Shown: positions 6,204 to 41,567 of the stretch, one piece after another
How the letters are laid out: each line of letters begins with the position of its first letter
Position numbering within the stretch: the first letter of the stretch is position 1
DNA from: a phage
Sequence record: PZ445407.1
Strand: one strand, 5' to 3'
Length of the DNA stretch: 47,731 nucleotides
The notes under the pieces: generated by a model
What the model was told of the DNA's origin: nothing
What the model saw: only the letters and a program-made list of their open reading frames with translations
Database searches by the model: none
Made by a program: the position numbers and the translations under genes

Positions 6204-6633
6204 GAATATTGGAAGCGTGGTTACGTTTGAAAAATCTATTGCTGACTGGATTGACAGAGCGGAGGATGGTTTTGGGATTGTGGTAGCCAATACGGTTATC
6301 AAGACAGCCAGCGCAATTGTTGACCTTTCTCCTGTCGACACTGGTAGGTTTAAGGCTAACTGGCAAATCACCGCAAACTCGCCAGCCCAGCAGTCACTAA
6401 ACGAGTACGACCAGACTGGCGGTCAGACAAAAACATACCTCGCCAGACAGGCGAGAGCGGTTGCCAACTCAAAAGCTACAAGTGTTATTTATATTACCAA
6501 CCGACTTGACTACGCGGCTGATCTTGAGTACGGCGCATCAAACCAGGCTCCATCCGGTGTTTTAGGTGTGGTGCAAGCAAGGTTGGGTAGGTATTTTCAA
6601 GAGGCAGTGGAGGAGGCGCGTCGTGCAATATGA
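6196..6633 (+). CDS. tail completion / neck protein (putative)
   Basis: ATG 6196 overlapping upstream stop; position in module. Confidence 0.4.
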   Translation: MARNIGSVVTFEKSIADWIDRAEDGFGIVVANTVIKTASAIVDLSPVDTGRFKANWQITANSPAQQSLNEYDQTGGQTKTYLARQARAVANSKATSVIYITNRLDYAADLEYGASNQAPSGVLGVVQARLGRYFQEAVEEARRAI

Positions 6634-7024
6634 ATTATCATTAGCAGCAAGGAAGTTCGTCAACGATTTGCTGGTAAGTGAATTTCCAGTCAGGTATCCA
6701 GTTGCTTGGGAGAATGCTGCATTTACCCCTCCTGCAGACGGATCAATCTGGCTTAAGTACGACTACACAGAGGCAGACACCGTAACCTATGGGCTTAGCC
6801 GAAAGTGCAAATACTACGTAGGCATGGTGCAGATTTCTGTTTTCTTCAGTCCTGGCACTGGAATTGATAAGCCGAGACAAATCGCTAATCAATTGGCAGA
6901 ATCTATCGTTGATGGTACAATACTTGACAGCGGGACCATTTATGAGTCTGGAGTTGTTAACCCGGTTATCAAATCCAAGTCTGGGTGGTTTATCCCGGTT
7001 CGTTTTTATGTTCGTCTAGACTAA
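6623..7024 (+). CDS. neck / tail terminator protein (putative), GTG start
   Basis: GTG 6623 preceded by aggagg; start codon uncertain. Confidence 0.35.
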   Translation: MQYELSLAARKFVNDLLVSEFPVRYPVAWENAAFTPPADGSIWLKYDYTEADTVTYGLSRKCKYYVGMVQISVFFSPGTGIDKPRQIANQLAESIVDGTILDSGTIYESGVVNPVIKSKSGWFIPVRFYVRLD

Positions 7025-7038
7025 CAAAAGGAAAATAC

Positions 7039-7695
7039 ATGGCCCATTTATCAAACGGCACCCAAGTCTTCGTAGAAGGCTCTCGTGGTGATGCTATTTC
7101 TGTCACTGCAATCTCTAACGCCTCCAGACCAGTTCTAACCGTTGACGATGCTTCTGGCGTTGTTGTTGGTGATTACCTGTTGTTTACAGCATCTGCTTCT
7201 ACACTACTTGCTGATAAGCAAGTTCGAGTTACCGCTGTAACTGGTAACTCAATCACTGTTGAAGGTATCGATACCTCTAACACCACAAAATTCCCAACTG
7301 GCTTAACTGGTGAGGTAGTTAAGATTCTTTCCTGGTTCGAAGTTCCGTGTGTTCAGGACGTATCCACTGACGGTGGAGAGCAGCAGTTTGTTAACTTCCA
7401 GTGCCTTTCTGATGATCGTGAACAGCAGATTCCGACCTATAAATCTGCCGTAACAAACACCTTTACCTTCGCTCATGAGTACACTAACCCGGTTTATCCG
7501 GTTCTGCGTGAATATGATGAGTCTGGTCAGGTTGTCGCGATTCGACTGTATGTTCCACGCGCCCAGGAAATGCGCTTGCAGTCCGGCACTATCGCTTTCA
7601 ACGACACCCCCACCATTGGTGTTAACGAAATCGAAACGGTATCCATCGCAGTATCCATTCGTGGTCGCTTGTCCTCTGTGGCAGCTGAAGTTTAA
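7039..7695 (+). CDS. major tail protein (putative)
   Basis: ATG 7039; ~218 aa; upstream of chaperones and tape measure; terminator follows. Confidence 0.5.
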   Translation: MAHLSNGTQVFVEGSRGDAISVTAISNASRPVLTVDDASGVVVGDYLLFTASASTLLADKQVRVTAVTGNSITVEGIDTSNTTKFPTGLTGEVVKILSWFEVPCVQDVSTDGGEQQFVNFQCLSDDREQQIPTYKSAVTNTFTFAHEYTNPVYPVLREYDESGQVVAIRLYVPRAQEMRLQSGTIAFNDTPTIGVNEIETVSIAVSIRGRLSSVAAEV

Positions 7696-7703
7696 AACAC
7701 AAA

Positions 7704-7723
7704 CCCTCTTCGGAGGGTTTTTT
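7704..7723 (+). terminator. rho-independent terminator after major tail gene
   Basis: ccctc-ttcg-gaggg + TTTTTT. Confidence 0.65.
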
Positions 7724-7729
7724 ATTGCA

Positions 7730-7772
7730 TAGCATTTTTTGATAAAGCATTAATTTAATCTTCCTGTATAGT
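7730..7772 (+). promoter_or_regulatory. palindrome-type promoter (TAGCA-N5-TGATA, 22-bp spacer, -10 TATAGT)
   Basis: Direct read; leader TACCTCATCGAAACGAAA. Confidence 0.55.
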
Positions 7773-7805
7773 TACCTCATCGAAACGAAATGAGAGATTA
7801 AAGAA

Positions 7806-8054
7806 ATGAATAACGTTAAAAACATCATCAAGCTCGCTGCGGTTCTGGTTGCTTTTTATGCAGTGATTCAGATTGTTAATCCAACCGGCGAGGCTGATGC
7901 AAATAGCAAGGCAAACAAATATGCCGTTGAATTTGCTAAAGCTGAGCGAGCATGTCAGTCGCTTGTAGGTGGTAAAGTTGACCAAATCATGAAATATGGC
8001 AAAGAGGTTTGCAAGGACTCAGCCGCTAAGATTGCAAAAGAAAACACTAAGTAA
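7806..8054 (+). CDS. small secreted or membrane protein, moron-like
   Basis: Own palindrome promoter; hydrophobic N-terminal segment (IIKLAAVLVAFYAVIQIV). Confidence 0.4.
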   Translation: MNNVKNIIKLAAVLVAFYAVIQIVNPTGEADANSKANKYAVEFAKAERACQSLVGGKVDQIMKYGKEVCKDSAAKIAKENTK

Positions 8055-25162: not shown

Positions 25163-25185
25163 AAAAAAACCTCCCGTGGGAGGTT
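25163..25185 (-). terminator. minus-strand terminator between primase and tail fiber
   Basis: hairpin cctccc-gtg-ggagg with A-run on plus strand. Confidence 0.5.
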
Positions 25186-26107
25186 AGTCTAATAACTCGC
25201 TTGCTTTGTATATTCGCTTTCTTATGCCTGACTTGAAAAAATTATCATCATTTGGTAATACCACATCAAGATTGCGATCGTCAGCAACAGCAAGTAATTC
25301 AAAATTATGGCGAGTACAAGCGATGCGTAACTTGTGGTTTCTAAGCGCGTAAGCAACCATTTCCATATTATAACTGGAGTGACAAACAAGTACGCAGCGG
25401 TTGCCAGTACCAAGATGAACGTGAACACCATCAATCCAATTGTCGACAAGATAAGCGTACTCATCATCTTTAAGAGAGCCAATAACAGCAACTGACTGGC
25501 GAGTGTAATCTTTTGCAGCATAACTAACATCTCCCTCTTCATTGATAAACATTACATTGCACATTTCCTCTGATATACCGTCACTATAAGCCATAAAGCA
25601 CGGTATTGCGTGTATTAGTTCGCCTGATTTTGCTCTACCAACATCAAATCCAAACTCGCTATAGATTCCCTCGTATGTACTGAGTGGGGTTGATTCTACT
25701 CTTTTGGTCCTTCCCATTATCTCCAGGCATCTTTCGTGGTCAATCTGAGCGCCCATCTTGTATGGTGATGTTCTTGATGCTTGCTTGTTTGCTTTGTTAA
25801 CCACCTCGACGGGGATTAGGTTTAACCACTCACCTAGAGCATCGATACATTCGCTGAACGACTCCCCTCGCAGTTTCTGGACCCAAAGAATTCCATCACC
25901 TGAGCCGCATTGGTTGCAAATAATACCACCATCACCAGGCTCGCTAACTTTGTCGGTCCATCTTGCGCGATCGTTTCCGCCGCAATAAATGCATGGTTGA
26001 TGCTTCTTGGTCTGGAAGAACTTTGGGTCAGCGCCGCAGATATTAATAAGTGCCTTATCCCACAGGCCGCGCATTCTTGGTAGAACCTCTTTCTTATCGT
26101 AGTGCAT
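25184..26107 (-). CDS. DNA primase (zinc-binding, putative)
   Basis: N-terminal Cys4 cluster (CIYCGG...CNQCG); replication region. Confidence 0.55.
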   Translation of the reverse strand: MHYDKKEVLPRMRGLWDKALINICGADPKFFQTKKHQPCIYCGGNDRARWTDKVSEPGDGGIICNQCGSGDGILWVQKLRGESFSECIDALGEWLNLIPVEVVNKANKQASRTSPYKMGAQIDHERCLEIMGRTKRVESTPLSTYEGIYSEFGFDVGRAKSGELIHAIPCFMAYSDGISEEMCNVMFINEEGDVSYAAKDYTRQSVAVIGSLKDDEYAYLVDNWIDGVHVHLGTGNRCVLVCHSSYNMEMVAYALRNHKLRIACTRHNFELLAVADDRNLDVVLPNDDNFFKSGIRKRIYKASELLD

Positions 26108-27015: not shown

Positions 27016-29010
27016 ATGTTGCCTATCGAGAAGCTGGTTGCCAACTTTGATAAAGAGAGAATTAAACAGATTCAGAAAGATTACCAGTTTGGCGAGATAA
27101 CACCTTACGAGTTCCAGTGCGTTACATTTGATGCAATTGGGAAAGCCATTGGCAAGTATGAGGCTCCATTTATCGCAGACCTTTCCGTGTCTGCGGGCAA
27201 GACAATAATTCTGGCTATGATTGGTAAGCGCATGGAGCAATTGGGGTTGCCTTATATGGTGCTCTCTCGCCAGTCAGAGATAATCAGCCAGAACTCAGAA
27301 GAGCTTCGCAACTTCGGCATCCGTAACAGCGTCTATTGCGCTGGTCTTAACGTTAAATCAGTTTACTACCCAACCATAGTTGCTAGTGAGGGTACGGCAG
27401 CCAACGGCTTGTTTAAGGGGCTTGGTGATTATGTTCCGGCAGTTATCGCTATCGATGAATGCCACATGGTCGATCACATGGATATCGTGGAAGCTGAAGA
27501 GAACGAAGAAACATTTGAGCAAATGAGCACAAAGAAAGGTGAGATGGTATTCAAGGATGGCGTTAACACTGGTTTGATTGGTACAGGTCGCGCACAATAC
27601 ACGCTAATAATTACCGAAATGAAACGTCGTTGCCGTGAGAAATACGGGCGGGAGCTTCGCATCTTTGGCCTTACTGGCAGCCCATATCGTAACAACGATC
27701 ATATCGTCGTTAGTAATCCAAACATCCGTGGTTTCTGGCGCAAGACGGTAATACAAGTACCAACCAATTACCTTGTTGATTTGGGGTTCGTTGTGCCAAC
27801 TGTTTACGGTGAGGTTGGCGATTTGGGTTACGATCTTAGTGAGTTTGCGCCAGATGGAAGTGACGGAATTAAGGATTTTAGCAAAAAAGAAATGGATGCG
27901 ATGGAGGAGAAAATCCACCAAAACCAATCAATGACTCAAAAGATTATGCAATTTGCCGCAAAGTTCATGGAGACTCGCAACGCAGCGCTTGTGACATGCT
28001 CTGGTAAGCGTCACTGTGAAGAAGCGGCAGCGGCGCTTCCTGAGGGTGTGACCTGGGCTATAGTAACCGACTCTACAGGTGAGAAAAAGCGCCGTGAGAT
28101 TCTGGCTGACGCTTCAGAAGGTAAGTATAAGTTCATCTTTCAGATTGGTTGCCTCACAACCGGAGTGAACGTCCCACCGTGGGATACATCAATCATTCTG
28201 CGCAAGGTTGGTAGCATCACGTTACTTATTCAGCTTTTGGGTCGAGGCATGCGAATTCTTAAGAAGAAGCATAAAGAAATGGGCATGGTTAAGGACGACC
28301 ACGTGGTTCTAGACTTCGCTGGAACACTTGACGACATGGCAGAGTTGTACTTTGACCCAATCATAGAGGAGGTGCAGGACCAGAAGTTTAAATCATCACG
28401 CAAGGGAAACGATGAGCCGAGGGTTTGCCCGGCCTGCAGCTATGAGAACTCACCATTCGCTCGTCGATGCAATAACGTAATTGACGGGAGGCGTTGTGAA
28501 CATTTTTTTAAATTTCGCTTATGTGAAGATATAGAGGACCACCAGACAAAAGTTACTGTTAAGAAAGGTTGTGGTGAGAAGAATGATATTGCCGCTAAAA
28601 ACTGCCGCTGCTGCGGAGAAATGCTTATTGACCCTAACGCAAAGTTGTCTGGAAAGATGTATCGAAAAGGTGACTGGTTGAGAGTTTACGGATTCAGTAT
28701 TGGGTTAACTAAAAACCAAGCCGGAATCGTTGCTCGCTATGAAATAATGGCTCACAGCGGGGATAGGTTTGTTGCTTACGAAACTTTCTTCCCAGAGAGT
28801 GACCATCGCGTTTGTTCCGTTAAGTGGAAGGCATTTTGCCAGGCGCACATCCAGAACAAAACAGAAGCATTTCGCATCGGAAGACTTCGAAACGCCAAAA
28901 TGATTATGACTAACGCAATTCAATTTCGTGAGCCAATGCGAGTGACTCATAGAAAGAACCAGAAGGGGCAGGACATTATTGCAAACAAATCTTTTACTAT
29001 GGATGATTGA
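27016..29010 (+). CDS. DExH-box helicase
   Basis: Motif II DECH (AIDECHMVDH), motif VI-like QLLGRGMR, C-terminal Cys clusters. Confidence 0.75.
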   Translation: MLPIEKLVANFDKERIKQIQKDYQFGEITPYEFQCVTFDAIGKAIGKYEAPFIADLSVSAGKTIILAMIGKRMEQLGLPYMVLSRQSEIISQNSEELRNFGIRNSVYCAGLNVKSVYYPTIVASEGTAANGLFKGLGDYVPAVIAIDECHMVDHMDIVEAEENEETFEQMSTKKGEMVFKDGVNTGLIGTGRAQYTLIITEMKRRCREKYGRELRIFGLTGSPYRNNDHIVVSNPNIRGFWRKTVIQVPTNYLVDLGFVVPTVYGEVGDLGYDLSEFAPDGSDGIKDFSKKEMDAMEEKIHQNQSMTQKIMQFAAKFMETRNAALVTCSGKRHCEEAAAALPEGVTWAIVTDSTGEKKRREILADASEGKYKFIFQIGCLTTGVNVPPWDTSIILRKVGSITLLIQLLGRGMRILKKKHKEMGMVKDDHVVLDFAGTLDDMAELYFDPIIEEVQDQKFKSSRKGNDEPRVCPACSYENSPFARRCNNVIDGRRCEHFFKFRLCEDIEDHQTKVTVKKGCGEKNDIAAKNCRCCGEMLIDPNAKLSGKMYRKGDWLRVYGFSIGLTKNQAGIVARYEIMAHSGDRFVAYETFFPESDHRVCSVKWKAFCQAHIQNKTEAFRIGRLRNAKMIMTNAIQFREPMRVTHRKNQKGQDIIANKSFTMDD

Positions 29011-33275: not shown

Positions 33276-33640
33276 TAATGTGCGTAGCTTTGTCTGGATG
33301 TTCAGCAACTGATGCACTGACCGGATTGATTGGCAGCAAGCCGGAGGTTACAGCTCAGGCCGGGGCAGAGAATAACAAGGTTGGAGTTGGGTTAACGAAT
33401 AAGGTCGACTCTAGTAACTCCAGTGATGCCACTGTTAAGGATTCCAGCGTAGGCTCTCTGGATAGCTCGAGTGGGAAAAAGACTGCTGACAATTCGATTA
33501 AGGCCTCAACAATTACCGCCGAAAAGATTGAAATTACCAATAACGAATCATCCGCGCTTCCGTGGGTTGGAACAGGAGCAATGGGTTTGTTGGTTTTAAT
33601 TCTCATGGCATTAATCTTAAGACGTAAAAAAGCCTCCTAA
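33251..33640 (+). CDS. unimolecular spanin (u-spanin-like)
   Basis: N-terminal lipobox LSGC plus C-terminal TMD followed by RRKK; overlaps endolysin 3' end. Confidence 0.6.
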   Translation: MFKWIAALVMCVALSGCSATDALTGLIGSKPEVTAQAGAENNKVGVGLTNKVDSSNSSDATVKDSSVGSLDSSSGKKTADNSIKASTITAEKIEITNNESSALPWVGTGAMGLLVLILMALILRRKKAS

Positions 33641-33662
33641 TGGAGGCTATATTTTTATCCAA
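33641..33662. terminator. bidirectional terminator after spanin
   Basis: agcctcc-taat-ggaggct flanked by A-run and T-run. Confidence 0.55.
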
Positions 33663-33990
33663 ATAACTCGTCGTCCGTCATTGTTCCTATATTCATCATC
33701 TCTTTTATGTACTTGCTTTGATACCCGTTAAGCGCCTCGAAGTTAAACTCAAATGGTCTTTTCAAGCTACCCTTGCTAACAAACTCACCACACTTACCAT
33801 CAATGTATCCAGCAGTTAGCATTTTTGCACAAAATTCCTTTGATGCGGCACTGCAAAACTCTCTGTGCGACAAACCAGCCGCTTTGCTGAATCTCTCAGA
33901 GTCCTTGTGTTTGTAGATGAATCGCGCCAAATGCTGGCGCGTAAAGTAGGAATAAGATTCACAGAATCGGTACACGTCAAGGATGAACAT
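33655..33990 (-). CDS. hypothetical protein
   Basis: Last gene of minus-strand operon. Confidence 0.4.
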   Translation of the reverse strand: MFILDVYRFCESYSYFTRQHLARFIYKHKDSERFSKAAGLSHREFCSAASKEFCAKMLTAGYIDGKCGEFVSKGSLKRPFEFNFEALNGYQSKYIKEMMNIGTMTDDELFG

Positions 33991-34082: not shown

Positions 34083-35666
34083 TCACCCCAGCAATCGTGG
34101 ATTAATGTAAACTTTATCACCAATCAGGCACGTGTAGTTTTTCTCATCAAGCATTGGCAGCAGGTGATCTTTAATCTTAGTCATCACTCCAGCCTGAGCT
34201 TCGAATGGTTTGACCTTACGAGCAGCTTCATATAGAGAACGAACGCCTACTACGCCTTTCCCGTTCCTGCCTTGTTTAATCAGAATATCAATCAGCTTAT
34301 TCATCTCGGCATTGTCTCCAGCGTGACCAGCGGCGTTGGCAGATGACAGATAAGTCTTGCTAAGTTCCTGGAACATAATTACAGCCTCCTGCATTGTGTC
34401 CAACTCAATCTCCCTGGACTTCTGTGGACTCCCGCCGTTAGGGTTGAACCAGTTGCGAATAGTGTGAAGAACCGCAGCGATTCTGATAGCCTGCTTATCG
34501 AACTTGCCTAACGCACCGCGCAACATTGTGTGTGAATACTTCCCGCCGTCCGCGAGGTGAGGCTCCATTTCCTGACGCGCTCGGTTGAGATATTTCATTG
34601 CTGAGTTGCTCACTGTCAACTTAACATCTTGCTCATTCATGATTTCGTGAACCAGTCGGAAGTAATCAGCCTTTAGTCCACCATCAATTGGCTCGTATGT
34701 TGATTCACCATTTTCATCAACGAATACACGCTCGCCCAGGAATGACTTTTCACGTACAAGCAGGAAACGTTCCGACACACCAATACCACGCGCACCAGCA
34801 TTCATGATCGCGTTTATTGTTTCATCCTGCGCAATTACTGAGATGCAACCCATAGCAAAGAAACTCATGTTGTTCTCTGCATTCGCGCGAGCGATAGATA
34901 CGTGCCCACCATCCCATGCTTTAAGAACAAGTTCGCTGTTCGTTTTCTTAGAGCCATCACCATAGGTCATGCCAAGCAGTGAGTTAACACTCGTTGCCTC
35001 ATCCGAGATAACCGCGAAGTTACCCTGGCGGTTGTTTATTCGTGCCAGGCCTTCAGGTGTGGTGTCTGATACCGGGAATACGATATCGCACAACTTCTCC
35101 AGTTTTTCCTCTAGCTCCTCCTTTTCCTCAAATAGGGAGGCCATCTCTGAAGGAGATTTTTCCTGCTTCATCTCTTTGGATAATGCGGATAGTTTTGCCA
35201 TAATCTTTTTGCGCTCACGCTTGCGAACTTCATTCAGTCGCTCGGTCTCAGCAATCATTGGAGCAATCGAAAGTGAGTTGATGGCTGATTTACCAGTTGA
35301 TGGCGGCTGACTGGTCACGACGTAAAGCGAAGTCGGTTGCTGAGTTCCATGATACTCGACAGTAAAGCGGCCCAGCATCGCAGCAGAAATACACCCCAGG
35401 AAGTGCATATAGGCTGAAGACTCTGGGAACTGAACGGAGCGGGCAATGTTGGCAGAAAGTTTACCAACAACATCAATATCATTACCGAGTGAGATTACGG
35501 GGTACTTGTCATTAGCGGAATCAATCTCTACGGGCGCCTTCCAGAACGATTGAGACTGTCGATAGCCATTGGCATTAATAGCGACTCGCAGGGGTGGGAG
35601 GTTGTCTGCGGCAGCAATTGCCATAACCTGTTCAACAGATAGCTTATCTTCGTTGAAATCAAACAT
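34083..35666 (-). CDS. P-loop NTPase (putative replication-associated ATPase)
   Basis: Walker A-like QPPSTGKS and Walker B-like AVISDEAT; N- and C-terminal regions shared with 38508..39047. Confidence 0.55.
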   Translation of the reverse strand: MFDFNEDKLSVEQVMAIAAADNLPPLRVAINANGYRQSQSFWKAPVEIDSANDKYPVISLGNDIDVVGKLSANIARSVQFPESSAYMHFLGCISAAMLGRFTVEYHGTQQPTSLYVVTSQPPSTGKSAINSLSIAPMIAETERLNEVRKRERKKIMAKLSALSKEMKQEKSPSEMASLFEEKEELEEKLEKLCDIVFPVSDTTPEGLARINNRQGNFAVISDEATSVNSLLGMTYGDGSKKTNSELVLKAWDGGHVSIARANAENNMSFFAMGCISVIAQDETINAIMNAGARGIGVSERFLLVREKSFLGERVFVDENGESTYEPIDGGLKADYFRLVHEIMNEQDVKLTVSNSAMKYLNRARQEMEPHLADGGKYSHTMLRGALGKFDKQAIRIAAVLHTIRNWFNPNGGSPQKSREIELDTMQEAVIMFQELSKTYLSSANAAGHAGDNAEMNKLIDILIKQGRNGKGVVGVRSLYEAARKVKPFEAQAGVMTKIKDHLLPMLDEKNYTCLIGDKVYINPRLLG

Positions 35667-35740
35667 TACTTCTCTCCGTGTTGTTTCTGAGCGGCCATTA
35701 TATCAACGGCCGCCTATAATTCATTATCAATTTGTGCTAT

Positions 35741-36094
35741 TTACAGGTATTGCGCTTCAAATCTGTAGTCACCGCACACTGTAACAAAGCCAACCTCTTC
35801 GTCACGGTATAGCTGCCAGGCATTGCCTTCTCTATCGTAAACGTATCCAGCAAACTGCCCAAGACCTGCATGAATGGCAACTTGATACCTCTTCCCTTCG
35901 GTAAAGTACTTGCGAATAGATGAGCGATGGTTAACCTTTGTGCAGTAAATAGTTTTGGTCTTGATATACTTACCGCGCCCTTCAATGTTAATCCATTTGC
36001 CATCTTTCTTGATTTGCTCTACACCATCTTTAACGCGAGCTTTGTATAATACGTTTTCGTTGCTAATCCAGTTCTTTGTCAGTGTAGTAGTCAT
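35741..36094 (-). CDS. hypothetical protein
   Basis: ATG 36094 overlaps stop of upstream small ORF. Confidence 0.4.
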   Translation of the reverse strand: MTTTLTKNWISNENVLYKARVKDGVEQIKKDGKWINIEGRGKYIKTKTIYCTKVNHRSSIRKYFTEGKRYQVAIHAGLGQFAGYVYDREGNAWQLYRDEEVGFVTVCGDYRFEAQYL

Positions 36095-36255
36095 TTTGTT
36101 ACTCTCTTCGTTGTCCACATGAATTTGTTAGGTACTGATTTGCGCACGATTCGCACAGCAATCTTGTCAAACTTCTGAACTAAACCGTAAATCTTCCCAT
36201 CAAGTGAGGAGCGGTAAACAGCCTCTTCCATTGCGTCGTAAAAGTTGTCGAACAT
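36091..36255 (-). CDS. hypothetical small protein (~54 aa)
   Basis: Hand-translated; coupled to neighbours. Confidence 0.25.
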   Translation of the reverse strand: MFDNFYDAMEEAVYRSSLDGKIYGLVQKFDKIAVRIVRKSVPNKFMWTTKRVTK

Positions 36256-36258
36256 TTT

Positions 36259-36450
36259 CTATCTCTTTGTTGCGTAAGTAATATTGCCCGCTGGAGTTGA
36301 GCATGTGATATCAAGTGGTTTGCTGTTGTGCTTAATTGTCTTGCTCTGCTCTCTAGCTGTCAAAACTGAATCAATAATCCTTTGGATGATAACCTTATCT
36401 CGTTTGCTTGACAGCTTCCATCGTTTCGTTAAAGTTTTTATGTCTTGCAT
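36259..36450 (-). CDS. hypothetical protein
   Basis: ORF track; behind minus-strand palindrome promoter. Confidence 0.35.
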   Translation of the reverse strand: MQDIKTLTKRWKLSSKRDKVIIQRIIDSVLTAREQSKTIKHNSKPLDITCSTPAGNITYATKR

Positions 36451-36476
36451 TTCACATCTCCCGTTTCAATGAGATG

Positions 36477-36519
36477 AATATACATGAAAAGCCCCGAAGG
36501 GATTTAGCGATTCGTGCTA
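36477..36519 (-). promoter_or_regulatory. palindrome-type promoter on minus strand with terminator-like hairpin in spacer
   Basis: Reverse complement: TAGCA cgaat CGCTA + 22 bp (contains cccttcgggg hairpin) + TATATT. Confidence 0.45.
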
Positions 36520-36665
36520 TTGCGTGCTTTTTCTATCGCCCTTAGCATAATCTCATGACTATCAAGCAAGTCTTCTCGGAACCAATCCCCGCATGGCCAG
36601 CCCTTTCCGCTGTAGGCGCTGATGACCTCCAGATCGAAATAATTTATCTCAGATGGTAATAGCAT
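36504..36665 (-). CDS. hypothetical small protein (~53 aa)
   Basis: Hand-translated; stop embedded in promoter palindrome. Confidence 0.25.
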   Translation of the reverse strand: MLLPSEINYFDLEVISAYSGKGWPCGDWFREDLLDSHEIMLRAIEKARNSTNR

Positions 36666-36668
36666 TAC

Positions 36669-36860
36669 TCAGGCCTCCATAATGTATTCAAACTCTGATG
36701 TAAACAGTGGAAGCTCCCTTCCGGAAGGAGTCTTGATACTAACCCCGCCGGACTCATACTGTCGCATAACCTCGTAAGAACCTCCAATCTCAACTCCGTA
36801 GAATTCTCTCTCGTATTTGCCGTGTTTCGTTTGAAAGCTGATTAATTTAATTTTCATCAT
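36669..36860 (-). CDS. hypothetical protein
   Basis: ORF track. Confidence 0.35.
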   Translation of the reverse strand: MMKIKLISFQTKHGKYEREFYGVEIGGSYEVMRQYESGGVSIKTPSGRELPLFTSEFEYIMEA

Positions 36861-37096
36861 TTCACCTCATTAAAGGTTGCAATACCAGGGATAAACATTC
36901 CAACCTTCCAGCCCGCAATGGCAATCCATCCAGAGTCGTGCTTGTGCGGTCGCTCAGCGCCATTAATCACCCACTCGTTCGGGATTGTCTTGCCGTTAAT
37001 GATTAGCGGCTCAGCGTCGTATGCAGAGCCTTTGACGAATGGTGTTAATACCTTCTTGTCTGTACTTGTAATAACGTTAGTGCAGCGAATTTTCAT
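36857..37096 (-). CDS. hypothetical protein (start MKIRCTNV)
   Basis: RBS gagga before ATG 37096. Confidence 0.35.
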   Translation of the reverse strand: MKIRCTNVITSTDKKVLTPFVKGSAYDAEPLIINGKTIPNEWVINGAERPHKHDSGWIAIAGWKVGMFIPGIATFNEVK

Positions 37097-37106
37097 ATCC
37101 AAATCC

Positions 37107-37286
37107 TCAAATAAATGGTAGGCATTCGTCACAGCCAAGTCCATCACAGCACAGGAATTCATCTTCTGACTGGAATTGCTTAGCCAAATCTATATCCAAC
37201 TTTCCTCGCACCACAAGTTCCGTGTAATCCTCGTTAAGCCCAATCAGTGCGCATTCTTGGCGTAACTCATCTTTATCAATCTTCAT
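37107..37286 (-). CDS. hypothetical protein (60 aa; Cys-rich C-terminus CCDGLGCDEC)
   Basis: ATG 37286 behind minus-strand promoter/leader of the conserved type. Confidence 0.35.
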   Translation of the reverse strand: MKIDKDELRQECALIGLNEDYTELVVRGKLDIDLAKQFQSEDEFLCCDGLGCDECLPFI

Positions 37287-37313
37287 ATCCACCCCCTCGT
37301 TGTTGATGAGTTG

Positions 37314-37357
37314 ACTATACCCTCGCCAGACCATAACGTCATTAACAAAAAGTGCTA
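37314..37357 (-). promoter_or_regulatory. palindrome-type promoter on minus strand for the 33655..37286 accessory operon
   Basis: Reverse complement: TAGCA ctttt TGTTA + ~22 bp + TATAGT + leader ...CATCAACAACGAGGGGG. Confidence 0.5.
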
Positions 37358-37373
37358 TTCGTCAGATTTATGG

Positions 37374-37458
37374 ATTGTTGCAGATATTGCAATGATTCAC
37401 ATGATTATTGCACATATAGCAATATTGCTTCAGATGCAATGATGTTTTTGATTGTTGC
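37374..37458. promoter_or_regulatory. cluster of ATTGCA/TGCAAT repeats flanked by direct repeat GATTGTTGC (operator-like)
   Basis: At least six TTGC(A) units within 85 bp of a non-coding region. Confidence 0.3.
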
Positions 37459-37602
37459 GAAAAGTGAAATGAAGGGGTGAGTGAGCGAATGATAGATGGA
37501 TGGACTACCATACAAGTTGATTTTGATTCTTCTTGAGCAACTTTGCGCATACGCGTTATAAAGGTTATGCCATGTAGATGAAATCTCACTCCGCAGGAAT
37601 CG

Positions 37603-37700
37603 TGTACGCCTATCACGCAGGATTACGCAATGGTTACGTAATAATATCTATATATATCAACCTTTTAGTGTTATTATTATTATTATTATTATATACGTGT
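37603..37700. repeat. iteron/AT-rich repeat element copy B (same core, (TTA)7)
   Basis: Direct repeat of copy A; second short conserved block TTACATTGAGCTATA at 37848..37869 vs 20429..20449. Confidence 0.6.
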
Positions 37701-37753
37701 ATATAGTGTAGATAGTGGATATTGGATATTGCGATAGTTTTCTATGATTTTTT

Positions 37754-37786
37754 CCTACACTTGTAGGAATGTGACTACACTGTAGG
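37754..37786. promoter_or_regulatory. two tandem palindromic sites CCTACA-(N1-2)-TGTAGG-AAT (operator-like)
   Basis: cctacacttgtaggaat and ctacactgtaggaat read directly. Confidence 0.35.
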
Positions 37787-37917
37787 AATAAATAGGCATA
37801 TATGGGCCACCCCTCCATAAAAACTTATCTACAATCTGTACACGGCTTTACATTGAGCTATATCTGGGGTTGGTAGCTGAAAAGCGTAAATAAATTGAAT
37901 TCAACCACAAATAACGC

Positions 37918-37946
37918 TTGATAACATGTAACCTCGATGATATTAT
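37918..37946 (+). promoter_or_regulatory. sigma70-like promoter (-35 TTGATA, 17 bp, -10 TATTAT) for 37987..38508
   Basis: Hexamers read directly. Confidence 0.45.
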
Positions 37947-37986
37947 GCACCCATATTAACGAAGGCAACAATCAGGAGTAATATCT

Positions 37987-38508
37987 ATGTCGAATCGAAT
38001 TCAGCCAGTAAGCCTTGGTGATGTTATCCGCTACATGGCCAAGCAGGCACTTAAGACTGACAACCGAACTTTTCATGTCCCAATCCATCTTATAGCTCGC
38101 CAGGTGTACGGACTAACGTCTGATGATATGGGCCGAATCAGCACTGAAGATCTCGAGACTGGTGGCAAATACAGCTTGGCAAAGTTGAAAGCGTCATATG
38201 TCTCTAACACAGTTGCAAGGATGCCGGAGATTCAGGAGGCGAACGTTCGGGCCAAGCTATCAATCAAGGACGGAGACTTCGGGGATGATGTTGATGTTCG
38301 ATGCGCATACATCACCTTGGTAGATGGGGCAATTCAGAAAGGAAAGAGAGTGAAGGCCAACAACCAGGTTGCAGAGAAGGCGGTGAACGACTTTAAGGAT
38401 AGAATCCTCAAGCTAATGCCATCCGTGACTGAGTTTGAAGGAGGCGAGATCACTGGAGCCATTAAGGCAATTAAGATGTACCAGGAAATGATTAAGGAGA
38501 CAAAATAA
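37987..38508 (+). CDS. hypothetical protein
   Basis: Behind canonical sigma70-like promoter. Confidence 0.45.
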   Translation: MSNRIQPVSLGDVIRYMAKQALKTDNRTFHVPIHLIARQVYGLTSDDMGRISTEDLETGGKYSLAKLKASYVSNTVARMPEIQEANVRAKLSIKDGDFGDDVDVRCAYITLVDGAIQKGKRVKANNQVAEKAVNDFKDRILKLMPSVTEFEGGEITGAIKAIKMYQEMIKETK

Positions 38509-39047
38509 TGGGGATGTTTGATTTTACCGAAGAGAAGCTGACAGATGAGCAGATTATGCAGATTGCTGCGCGGGATGGACTTCCTCCGCTACGAGTTGCA
38601 ATCAATGCCAATGGATATCGCCAGTCTCAATCATTCTGGTGTAGTGTTGAGGAGTTGCTCTGCGCAAAGCTCGACAGCAAGTCGGGCGTAGTTGTGCTAA
38701 AAATTCACGACCAGAGCAGGAACGGTAAAGGGGTTGTAGGAATTAGATCAACATATGAAGCGCTGAGAAAGGTCAAGCCATTTGCCGGACTCAACGGAGT
38801 CATGCATGACCTGAAAAATAACATCCTGCCATCGCTACAGGACGTAGGAATCATCTGCCTCATTGGAGATAAAATTTACGTGCATCCATACATCATTGGC
38901 ATGCATGCGATAGAAGTTGAAGAGTGGTGCGACCCATGTCCTGCTGTTGAGCAAGATACTAGACTACCATACCACTTGCGTTATAGTGAGGAAGAGGTGG
39001 AGATGGCGATGGACTTGTATCGTAGATGGAATGCTGTTGGGAAATGA
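38508..39047 (+). CDS. internally deleted paralog of the 34083..35666 ATPase (N- and C-terminal modules only)
   Basis: Shares LPPLRVAINANGYRQSQSFW and C-terminal RNGKGVVG.R..YEA.RKVKPF...CLIGDK.Y with the 527-aa protein; lacks the P-loop core. Confidence 0.5.
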   Translation: MGMFDFTEEKLTDEQIMQIAARDGLPPLRVAINANGYRQSQSFWCSVEELLCAKLDSKSGVVVLKIHDQSRNGKGVVGIRSTYEALRKVKPFAGLNGVMHDLKNNILPSLQDVGIICLIGDKIYVHPYIIGMHAIEVEEWCDPCPAVEQDTRLPYHLRYSEEEVEMAMDLYRRWNAVGK

Positions 39048-39134: not shown

Positions 39135-39344
39135 ATGAAGATGGAAAATATTCGTATTGAAGATGTTTACGTTGACCAGGCTGAGGTCAGCATCACAAAA
39201 AGAGATCGTGGTGCCGTTGTATCTCTGGATTTCGACCCTGATGAATACGGAGATTGTCAGACGCTGATGCAATACAGTCCAGACCAGGCGCGCAAGCTGG
39301 CGGCGGCATTAATTCTGGCGGCTGATGAGGCAGAGAAGCAATGA
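39135..39344 (+). CDS. small acidic protein (paralog family with 39456 and 42469)
   Basis: Shared C-terminal helix (ARKLAAALILAADEA). Confidence 0.4.
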   Translation: MKMENIRIEDVYVDQAEVSITKRDRGAVVSLDFDPDEYGDCQTLMQYSPDQARKLAAALILAADEAEKQ

Positions 39345-39455: not shown

Positions 39456-39641
39456 ATGAGCAACGGAATCATTATAAAATCTGGCGACAGGATTCTTATT
39501 GAGGCGCGCAGAAATGTCGTTGAACTTGAAACAGAAAATGACTATGCGTTCATGACTCCAGAGCAGGCGCTTGAACTTGCAGCCGCCCTTGTATCTGCGG
39601 CGAATGAAGCCAACAACCAGCTCGGGAGCGCCCAGGCATGA
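39456..39641 (+). CDS. small acidic protein (paralog family)
   Basis: C-terminal ALELAAALVSAANEA. Confidence 0.4.
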   Translation: MSNGIIIKSGDRILIEARRNVVELETENDYAFMTPEQALELAAALVSAANEANNQLGSAQA

Positions 39642-40274: not shown

Positions 40275-40814
40275 ATGAATCAGATGTACACCATGATTAA
40301 GCAACACCTGAACACCGAGGCAATCAACAAGCCAGTCTACGTGTTTGACTACGACGGCACGCTGTCGGACGGATCGCATCGCTTGCATAAGTTGCCGACA
40401 AAGGATTTACACCTCACTGAGTCATGGTCTGAATTCAATCGACTGTCAGAATATGATGAACCTATCGAATCAACCATTCAGGTGATGAATAGCCTGTACG
40501 ACTCTGGCGCATACATCATCATCCTAACCGGGCGGTCAGACGAGGTGTGTGAAATTTCGACTCAGTGGCTTCATGATGCTAAAGCAAAATATAACGTAAT
40601 GGTCATGCGCCAGGCTGATGACAACAGAAAGGATACAATCATCAAAGAGGAGTTCTTGCGCTACATTGGCTTGCATCGAATTACGGCAGCATTCGATGAT
40701 AGCCCTAACGTGGTTGCGCACTTCCGAAGCCTGGGCATCACTACCTATCAGGTTTGCGACTATGGCGATAAGCTACACGCTGGAGTCGGATCGCATGGCG
40801 TTCATCATAAGTGA
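40275..40814 (+). CDS. HAD-superfamily phosphatase / nucleotidase (putative)
   Basis: HAD motif I VFDYDGTL and later D-rich motifs. Confidence 0.5.
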   Translation: MNQMYTMIKQHLNTEAINKPVYVFDYDGTLSDGSHRLHKLPTKDLHLTESWSEFNRLSEYDEPIESTIQVMNSLYDSGAYIIILTGRSDEVCEISTQWLHDAKAKYNVMVMRQADDNRKDTIIKEEFLRYIGLHRITAAFDDSPNVVAHFRSLGITTYQVCDYGDKLHAGVGSHGVHHK

Positions 40815-40934: not shown

Positions 40935-41567
40935 ATGGCTAAAATAATCATTCTTAATGGACCGGCAGGTATTGGAAAGGACACTATCGGAAACGCGCTT
41001 GCAGCAGATTACAATTGCAACCTGGTAAGTTTCAAGCGTCCTATGTTTGATATCGCATCCTCAATACTAGGCGCTTTAGCCTTCAGCAAATTCATCACCG
41101 CTTATAATGACCGAGATCAGAAAGAGCGTCCTCAGGAATTTCTTGGTGGAAAGACATGCCGTGAGTTCATGATCTGGATTAGCGAATCAGTAGTTAAGCC
41201 GCTTTTAGGCGATAGGCAGTTCGGTAAGTTGATGAGCGAACATATCCAGATGCGTGACGAAGGCTTTACGTTTGTTTGCACTGATGGCGGTTTCCCTGAT
41301 GAGGTTATTCAGCTAGTGGAAGATGGACACGATGTTACCCTTGTACGCTTATTTATGGATGGTAAGACATTCGCTGGCGATAGTCGTGATTACATCCGAA
41401 TCAAGGAATCGCACTTCCCTGATTACCATGCCTACCAGGAGCATGATGTTCATCTAGTCAATGGTGATATTTATGGCGGTGTTCTGTCGGTAGCTGATGC
41501 TTGCGGTATTGGCTCACCAGTTCCAGAGGTTGATGTTTACGAGTGGGAAGATGGATTACCCTGGTAA
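40935..41567 (+). CDS. P-loop nucleotide/nucleoside kinase (dNMP-kinase-like, putative)
   Basis: Walker A GPAGIGKDT at N-terminus. Confidence 0.5.
   Translation: MAKIIILNGPAGIGKDTIGNALAADYNCNLVSFKRPMFDIASSILGALAFSKFITAYNDRDQKERPQEFLGGKTCREFMIWISESVVKPLLGDRQFGKLMSEHIQMRDEGFTFVCTDGGFPDEVIQLVEDGHDVTLVRLFMDGKTFAGDSRDYIRIKESHFPDYHAYQEHDVHLVNGDIYGGVLSVADACGIGSPVPEVDVYEWEDGLPW

Follow-up and report, generated by a model that had tools for sequence, protein, structure and literature searches.

Why would a phage keep, a few kilobases from its helicase gene, a second gene that encodes both ends of the helicase and nothing of the motor between them? The question arises in Escherichia phage JulesPiccard (BASEL Bas03), a T1-like coliphage of the Drexlerviridae, whose 47,731-bp sequence is the window analysed here. 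An earlier note, made from the letters of this DNA alone, had pointed to a 527-aa P-loop ATPase on the minus strand and a 179-aa plus-strand protein with similar ends, and had suggested that the short protein could regulate the ATPase or compete with it. Both open reading frames (ORFs) lie exactly where it had placed them. The two genes and their parts are as follows.

34083..35666, minus strand: gene for the 527-aa DUF3987 / MCM-like (superfamily 6, SF6) helicase.
35514..35666, minus strand: helicase N-terminal block, aa 1-51, common to the short protein; three short helices (11-21, 25-33, 36-41).
35286..35309, minus strand: Walker A-like QPPSTGKS, aa 120-127; Q120, P121, P122, S123, G125 and K126 invariant in 38 helicases.
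34992..35018, minus strand: Walker B region FAVISDEAT, aa 217-225; F217, S221 and E223 invariant in 38 helicases.
34086..34307, minus strand: helicase C-terminal helix and winged-helix block, aa 454-527, common to the short protein (hhalign, 99.5%).
38508..39047, plus strand: gene for the 179-aa core-less paralog, bas03_0065, phrog_7327; 100% identity to NCBI 'hypothetical protein bas03_0065 [Escherichia phage JulesPiccard]'.
38514..38666, plus strand: short-protein N block, aa 3-53, homologous to helicase 1-51.
38679..38900, plus strand: short-protein helix and winged helix, aa 58-131, homologous to helicase 454-527.
38901..39044, plus strand: acidic family-specific tail, aa 132-179; helix, disordered linker and conserved terminal helix.

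The similarity between the two proteins lies in two separate blocks. BLASTP aligned helicase residues 1-51 with short-protein residues 3-53 (36/51 identical, 71%; E 1e-21), and helicase 465-527 with short-protein 69-131 (36/63 identical, 57%; E 3e-23). The pairwise alignment that the earlier note had proposed thus gave two significant matches, neither of low complexity, and the shared C-terminal block it described was borne out. A profile-profile comparison of 36 short proteins with 38 helicases extended this second block to helicase 454-527 and short-protein 58-131 with 99.5% probability, at an identity of about 50-57%. The PHROG profiles cross-match as well: the helicase hits phrog_7327 (E 2e-54) and the short protein hits phrog_2373 (E 8e-25). 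Low-complexity or chance similarity is ruled out by the two independent blocks together with these profile and PHROG matches.

The DNA of the shared blocks has diverged much further than the proteins. Nucleotide identity is 69% and 64%, most differences fall in third positions and no exact match is longer than 11 nt. The proportion of synonymous differences between the paralogs (pS) is 0.52-0.67, near saturation. A 20-residue N-terminal stretch, LPPLRVAINANGYRQSQSFW, is nevertheless identical in both proteins, with 10 differences over 15.5 synonymous sites and 0 over 44.5 non-synonymous sites. From the low DNA identity, the near-saturated synonymous sites and the fully kept stretch, the similarity is judged to be old and strongly constrained in both copies. 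Recent gene conversion, or a recombinogenic inverted repeat, is ruled out by the same nucleotide identity, match length and pS.

The short protein lacks the ATPase core, as the earlier note had said. The alignment covers only helicase 1-51 and 454-527, and a Pfam search of the short protein returned no match at E ≤ 0.1, the DUF3987 region (helicase 81-430) being absent. The 179-aa protein is therefore, on sequence grounds, a derivative of a DUF3987 helicase and not itself a member of the family. By alignment it is the two helicase ends joined, with approximately residues 52-453, the whole ATPase core, missing and a new tail added.

The parent protein is an ordinary member of the known DUF3987 helicase family, and by analogy with that family it would unwind DNA. 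A profile search, proposed beforehand for this protein, matched residues 81-430 to Pfam DUF3987 (PF13148; E 3.7e-42, 145.2 bits against a gathering cutoff of 27), and a PHROG search matched phrog_2373, "DNA helicase". The Walker A-like QPPSTGKS and Walker B-like ISDEAT seen in the earlier note are confirmed, and across the helicase family they hardly vary. An AlphaFold2 model computed with 38 homologs has an MCM-like AAA+ fold (predicted local distance difference test score, pLDDT, 89.8; predicted template-modelling score, pTM, 0.87). In this model three short N-terminal helices are followed by a loop, the motor, a long helix spanning 451-468 and, at 472-521, a winged helix, the C-terminal topology being H451-468 E472-474 H475-482 H494-508 E512-515 E518-521. 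The winged-helix block is basic (isoelectric point, pI, 9.6; net charge +5), and a structure search with the helicase C-terminus returned winged-helix neighbours of the same kind as those of the short protein. Kazlauskas et al. 2016 describe DUF3987 proteins as SF6 helicases carrying a winged helix-turn-helix at the C-terminus (PMC4889955), and the PriCT-DUF3987 protein AgaPH is an active ATP-dependent 5'-3' helicase that binds its primase-polymerase (PMC11724360). Adjacency or fusion to a primase is frequent, not universal, in the DUF3987 family and is not seen here. The DnaG-type primase of JulesPiccard is about 8 kb away, and the genes flanking the helicase are small ORFs without assigned function.

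The short protein matches phrog_7327 over nearly its full length (E 2.4e-69), residues 3-175 aligning with positions 1-173 of the 179 in the profile. Its AlphaFold2 model is compact and confident over residues 10-140 (pLDDT 82.2, pTM 0.70). It begins with helices 13-23, 27-35 and 38-43, as in the helicase, then a short helix and a long helix (57-69). Next come a winged helix (76-125) and a further helix, which a disordered linker (144-154) separates from the terminal helix (161-178). This winged helix is also basic (pI 9.6, net charge +4). Its structural neighbours are of winged-helix type (ORC2, ORC1, Cdc6, RepA and also MarR-type regulators), and the top ones are mostly protein-interaction winged helices of the ORC, Cdc6 and kleisin type. 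A BFVD fold search returned only the short family itself and helicase fragments. Searches of NCBIfam and PADLOC gave nothing for the helicase, the short protein or the product of the neighbouring DUF7174 gene, and PDB sequence searches with these three proteins and with the profiles of the first two gave no usable matches.

The 48-residue tail (132-179) has no helicase counterpart and carries a net charge of -6; Y159, E163, Y171 and R172 are its conserved columns in the short-family alignment. This extra tail was absent from the earlier note. In one metagenomic homolog (P0082) the conserved terminal-helix motif is duplicated in tandem at the C-terminus (YDADEVEKAIEFYRKYDEDEVEEAMQFYRSY), which suggests that the tail helix is a modular unit. 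Cysteines C45, C52, C117 and C141 are common in one short-protein sub-clade. C117 is invariant in the short family and present in the helicase too, and the other three are replaced in a second sub-clade; in some members these cysteines may form a metal or disulfide site.

The short gene has the signals expected of an expressed gene, listed here with the gene that precedes it.

37918..37946, plus strand: predicted promoter of sigma-70 type upstream of the DUF7174/short operon, TTGATA-17-TATTAT, with an extended -10 TG (consensus scan, 10/12).
37987..38508, plus strand: DUF7174 gene, phrog_4841 (Pfam PF23796, E 4.9e-51), overlapping the start of the short gene.
38494..38499, plus strand: AAGGAG ribosome-binding site, 8 nt upstream of the short gene's ATG.
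38506-38510, plus strand: TAATG overlap of the DUF7174 stop with the short gene's start.

The order DUF7174 then short gene, with the overlapping start, is found in all six relatives compared (Veterinaerplatzvirus, Rogunavirus AHP42, UALMA_PCEc3, Nouzillyvirus P817, JeanPiccard and Msk). In each of them the helicase is on the opposite strand, a few kilobases away and beyond a long divergent intergenic region. The short gene is thus probably the second gene of an operon, translationally coupled to DUF7174 behind the predicted promoter; that it is transcribed early is our assumption.

Selection has acted on both copies, although to different degrees. Among seven phages that carry both genes the helicases are 90-99% identical and the short proteins 45-78%. 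Nei-Gojobori ratios of non-synonymous to synonymous substitution (dN/dS) lie at 0.01-0.03 in the helicase and at 0.15-0.29 in the short gene (dS 0.5-2.4, partly saturated). Within the short gene the two shared blocks have ratios of 0.11-0.18, against 0.56-0.82 for the tail. Because of the low overall and shared-block ratios, the short gene is judged to be under purifying selection, about ten times weaker than that on the helicase. This agrees with the earlier note, which had read the synonymous divergence as selection on both copies. The ribosome-binding site, the TAATG overlap, the compact predicted fold and the dN/dS together argue that this is a live gene rather than a remnant. The earlier note had named two findings that would count against it, similarity confined to low-complexity sequence and a pseudogene without expression signals; neither was encountered.

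Which phages carry the short gene, and when did it arise? The helicase occurs in 924 phage records, 129 of which are at least 90% identical to the JulesPiccard helicase. The helicase query also finds 129 extra matching places (1053 minus 924). These numbers fit one short paralog per genome of the close clade and none elsewhere, as inferred from counts and not record by record. The short paralog is absent from about 86% of the phages with the helicase. With the short protein as query, a full-length copy was found in 106 records, and phages of Klebsiella, Tunavirinae and Tempevirinae type match only through their helicase. The short-gene carriers checked belong to the Braunvirinae, Rogunavirinae and Nouzillyvirus. 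The BASEL description groups Braunvirinae and Rogunavirinae into one major Drexlerviridae clade, in agreement with this distribution. On these counts, the earlier question of whether relatives carry one gene or both is answered: both are found only in phages with the closest helicases, the helicase alone elsewhere. The DUF7174 gene is found in 140 records, some of them (Rtp, Sd1) without the short gene. A short-family profile searched against 1.84 billion representative proteins gave 51 matches: some ten full-length short proteins, roughly a dozen helicases and otherwise fragments. With so few matches, the short family is narrow.

In a neighbour-joining tree of the concatenated shared blocks the short proteins all fall into a single clade. 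Its sisters are the closest helicases, and it lies inside the more distant Drexlerviridae helicases; this tree rests on a short alignment, carries no support values and is indicative only. Because the short proteins form one clade nested among helicases, the simplest account is a single origin, in which the gene would have arisen once, by duplication and in-frame internal deletion in the ancestor of the clade. The reverse course, insertion of a motor into a small ancestral protein to build the helicase, is ruled out by that nesting and by the restriction of the short gene to the clade with the closest helicases. Divergent members of the short family keep the N-terminal motif, the winged helix and the terminal helix. 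One metagenomic homolog (P0245; 103-612 of a 653-bp contig) has a winged helix 69% identical to that of the JulesPiccard helicase, compared with 57% for the winged-helix block of the JulesPiccard short protein, to which the whole protein is 41% identical. This hints at slower divergence or at occasional exchange between the paralogs.

How, then, might the short protein act? Within the Drexlerviridae the helicase gene was, on this account, duplicated once and approximately residues 52-453, motor and lid, lost in frame. The deletion fused the N-terminal helices to the last helix and the winged helix, and an acidic tail with a conserved helix was gained. The product should be unable to bind ATP or to build a motor ring and would act by binding alone; because it has no motor, it would work only through partners of the helicase termini. 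A ligand common to both proteins is probable, since the 20-residue motif has stayed identical across synonymous saturation and both winged helices are basic. Candidates for this ligand would be origin or fork DNA, the helicase ring, and partner proteins, for instance the primase or the DUF7174 protein. In that case helicase loading or activity would be tuned by the short protein, whose simplest means would be competition for the shared ligand. We consider it an even call whether the short protein in fact shares a ligand with the helicase termini and modulates loading or activity in this way, most simply as a competitor.

Several observations weigh against parts of this proposal. The helicases are near-invariant while the short proteins vary, so the two do not co-vary, and contact between the N- and C-terminal segments was not established in the helicase model; both points speak against a tight helicase-short complex. 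The short gene is also dispensable in some lineages, and hence accessory and not a core part of replication. Any role is accessory because the gene is absent from most helicase-carrying phages and has been lost or truncated repeatedly in relatives. Phage Rtp keeps a 19-residue stump (MFDFTEEKLTDEQVMRIVE*), rtp2 (Rtp stretch 1064-1383), and then comes rtp3, whose 87-aa product has a signal of lipoprotein type (MKRLMKCMTIIAAMVALTGC...); here a possible membrane or exclusion lipoprotein appears to have replaced the short gene. Msk (unverified record, 6381-6920) has two nonsense codons, CAA to TAA at codon 39 and TGG to TAG at codon 140. In Veterinaerplatzvirus (12210I 7403-7936) GGA has become TGA at codon 141, just before the tail, in about 43 near-identical records, with the tail in frame and readable beyond it. 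The nonsense mutations in these two phages could be recent inactivation, read-through or sequencing errors. Some metagenomic contigs carry short copies that are split N-terminally.

These losses, and the high dN/dS of the tail, are what would be expected if the short gene were a functionless decaying duplicate, a rearrangement leftover that happens still to be open in JulesPiccard. We regard this as highly improbable. Although the synonymous sites of the paralogs are saturated, more than 100 phage genomes and most of about 300 metagenomic homologs have the ORF intact, and a neutral ORF would not outlast such divergence. The low dN/dS of the shared blocks, the conserved ribosome-binding site and translational coupling and the confident predicted fold all contradict decay. 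A different fate for the duplicate would be neofunctionalization as a winged-helix transcription factor for the predicted divergent promoters, with the link to the helicase gone. The basic winged helix, the MarR-type regulators and RepA among its structural neighbours, the family-specific tail and the proximity of the gene to a 650-bp repeat-rich divergent promoter region are compatible with such a regulator. A pure transcription factor has no obvious need for the N-terminal helicase motif, however, which is perfectly kept; the best structural neighbours are protein-interaction winged helices and not classical regulators, and no repeated operator accompanying the short gene was demonstrated. 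We therefore think a regulator of this kind improbable.

The same data can be read as an arms race. The short protein might mimic the exposed terminal module of the helicase and absorb a host defence sensor or inhibitor directed at that module, or it might poison the helicases of related phages in a co-infection, in either case with no part in regulating the phage's own replication. Fast evolution (about ten times that of the helicase), patchy distribution with repeated loss and an accessory location are typical traits of arms-race genes and favour this reading. The gene lies in a variable accessory region, assumed to be early, together with a HAD/polynucleotide-kinase-phosphatase-like gene, and Rtp has a T4 Stp-like gene there. 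The shared 20-aa motif has been kept identical, as a mimic would need. Against this, sensing of DUF3987 helicases is not known for any defence system; the papers that we found, on retron-Eco11 and Avs, concern SF2 or RecA-type helicases, and neither PADLOC nor other family searches gave a match. Outside the motif, moreover, the supposed mimic has drifted to 57-71% identity while the helicase stays about 98% constant, which makes it a poor mimic. A decoy or weapon is, on balance, unlikely. The more specific forms of it, an early (again by assumption) decoy against a defence that senses MCM-like phage helicases, or a dominant-negative weapon against the near-identical helicases of competing T1-like phages, are a little less probable still. 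If true, they would constitute a new class of anti-defence or inter-phage competition factor, made by excising the motor from a replication enzyme.

The rest of the window provides the setting for these genes. The nearest relatives of JulesPiccard in the phage collection are Braunvirinae (Msk and Veterinaerplatzvirus isolates), with about 86% nucleotide identity in this region. The gene map is T1-like, with exonuclease VIII, Erf, SSB, a lateral tail fibre, lysis genes and a small terminase subunit. Three further features of the window are as follows.

25184-26107: DnaG-type primase of JulesPiccard.
27016-29010: superfamily 2 (SF2) helicase of JulesPiccard.
37335..37986: 650-bp AT-rich divergent intergenic region (GC 0.38) between the leftward helicase block and the rightward short-paralog block.

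The intergenic region, a candidate promoter/operator or origin, contains a unit of about 28 nt in three copies at 37368-37472 (TTGTTGCA..ATTGCAATGA-like), two inverted repeats (37696-37714/37826-37844 and 37747-37759/37781-37793) and a (TTA)n run around 37674-37692. Just 3' of the short paralog are two small adjacent ORFs, 39135-39344 (69 aa) and 39456-39641 (61 aa). Both match phrog_13316 and have in common a C-terminal helix rich in alanine (…LAAAL…AA.EA…), and they look like a tandem duplicate pair. Further along this strand, and by assumption part of one operon with the short gene, are genes for a HAD-type phosphatase-like protein (40275-40814) and a 210-aa P-loop NTPase (40935-41567). The Rtp homolog of the HAD-type protein, rtp4, is annotated as a polynucleotide kinase/phosphatase, and a T4 Stp-like peptide is annotated nearby in Rtp. 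Because of these kinase-phosphatase-like and P-loop NTPase genes and the Stp-like peptide, the region downstream of the short paralog is suggested to hold host-takeover or anti-defence functions. On the other side, downstream of the helicase, a terminator-like bidirectional hairpin with T-runs on both sides (33631-33648, AGCCTCC-TAAT-GGAGGCT) sits between the convergent spanin gene and the ydbL-like gene (33655-33990).

T1-like phages (Drexlerviridae) are common coliphages and Klebsiella phages that are used in therapy and in defence-system research. To our knowledge, the initiation of their replication is essentially unstudied. Literature searches (DUF3987; Drexlerviridae helicase escape; T1-like origin/winged helix) returned nothing on the short paralog or its helicase origin, and we found no earlier description of the helicase derivation, domain make-up and selection regime proposed here for phrog_7327. 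A terminal module that was excised and kept marks a part of an MCM-like helicase with a job of its own, be it ligand binding, loading or regulation, and the short protein is a ready probe for the ligand of that module. Should it turn out to regulate, compete or act as a decoy, it would give a clean example, from a bacterial virus, of a modulator made from a replication enzyme by deletion of the motor. Should it have no phenotype, it would still document how domain-excision paralogs arise and persist. The advance is modest. Unless the decoy or weapon reading is true, the short paralog is not mechanistically surprising, and it is a moderately new version of a known theme.

How do the two proteins compare with known systems? 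Among DUF3987/SF6 helicases (AgaPH; N4 dns) the 527-aa protein is a clear member by Pfam match, Walker A and B motifs, MCM-like AAA+ fold and C-terminal winged helix. It differs in having a three-helix N-terminal segment instead of a PriCT/primase domain, and it is neither fused nor adjacent to a primase. The short protein shares descent with the two termini of these helicases only and has none of the DUF3987 domain. It matches the unannotated phrog_7327 end to end, and the members of that family are its orthologs in Braunvirinae, Rogunavirinae and Nouzillyvirus. With the winged-helix modules of replication initiators and helicases (ORC2, ORC1, the Cdc6 and MCM C-termini and plasmid RepA) it has 8-15% identity, a resemblance of fold only; its model predicts a winged helix with no ATPase domain attached.

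The closest parallels in logic are truncated or internally deleted competitors and repressors: papillomavirus E8^E2 and E2-TR, the Tn5 inhibitor protein, the P-element KP repressor and phiX174 A*. These derivatives come from the same gene as their parent, through alternative starts or splicing, or from defective copies of the element. By analogy, the short protein would have lost the catalytic part and kept the binding modules, and so could occupy the sites of its parent. It differs from all of them in being a separate, diverged and independently transcribed paralog, encoded on the opposite strand and extended by a tail of its own.

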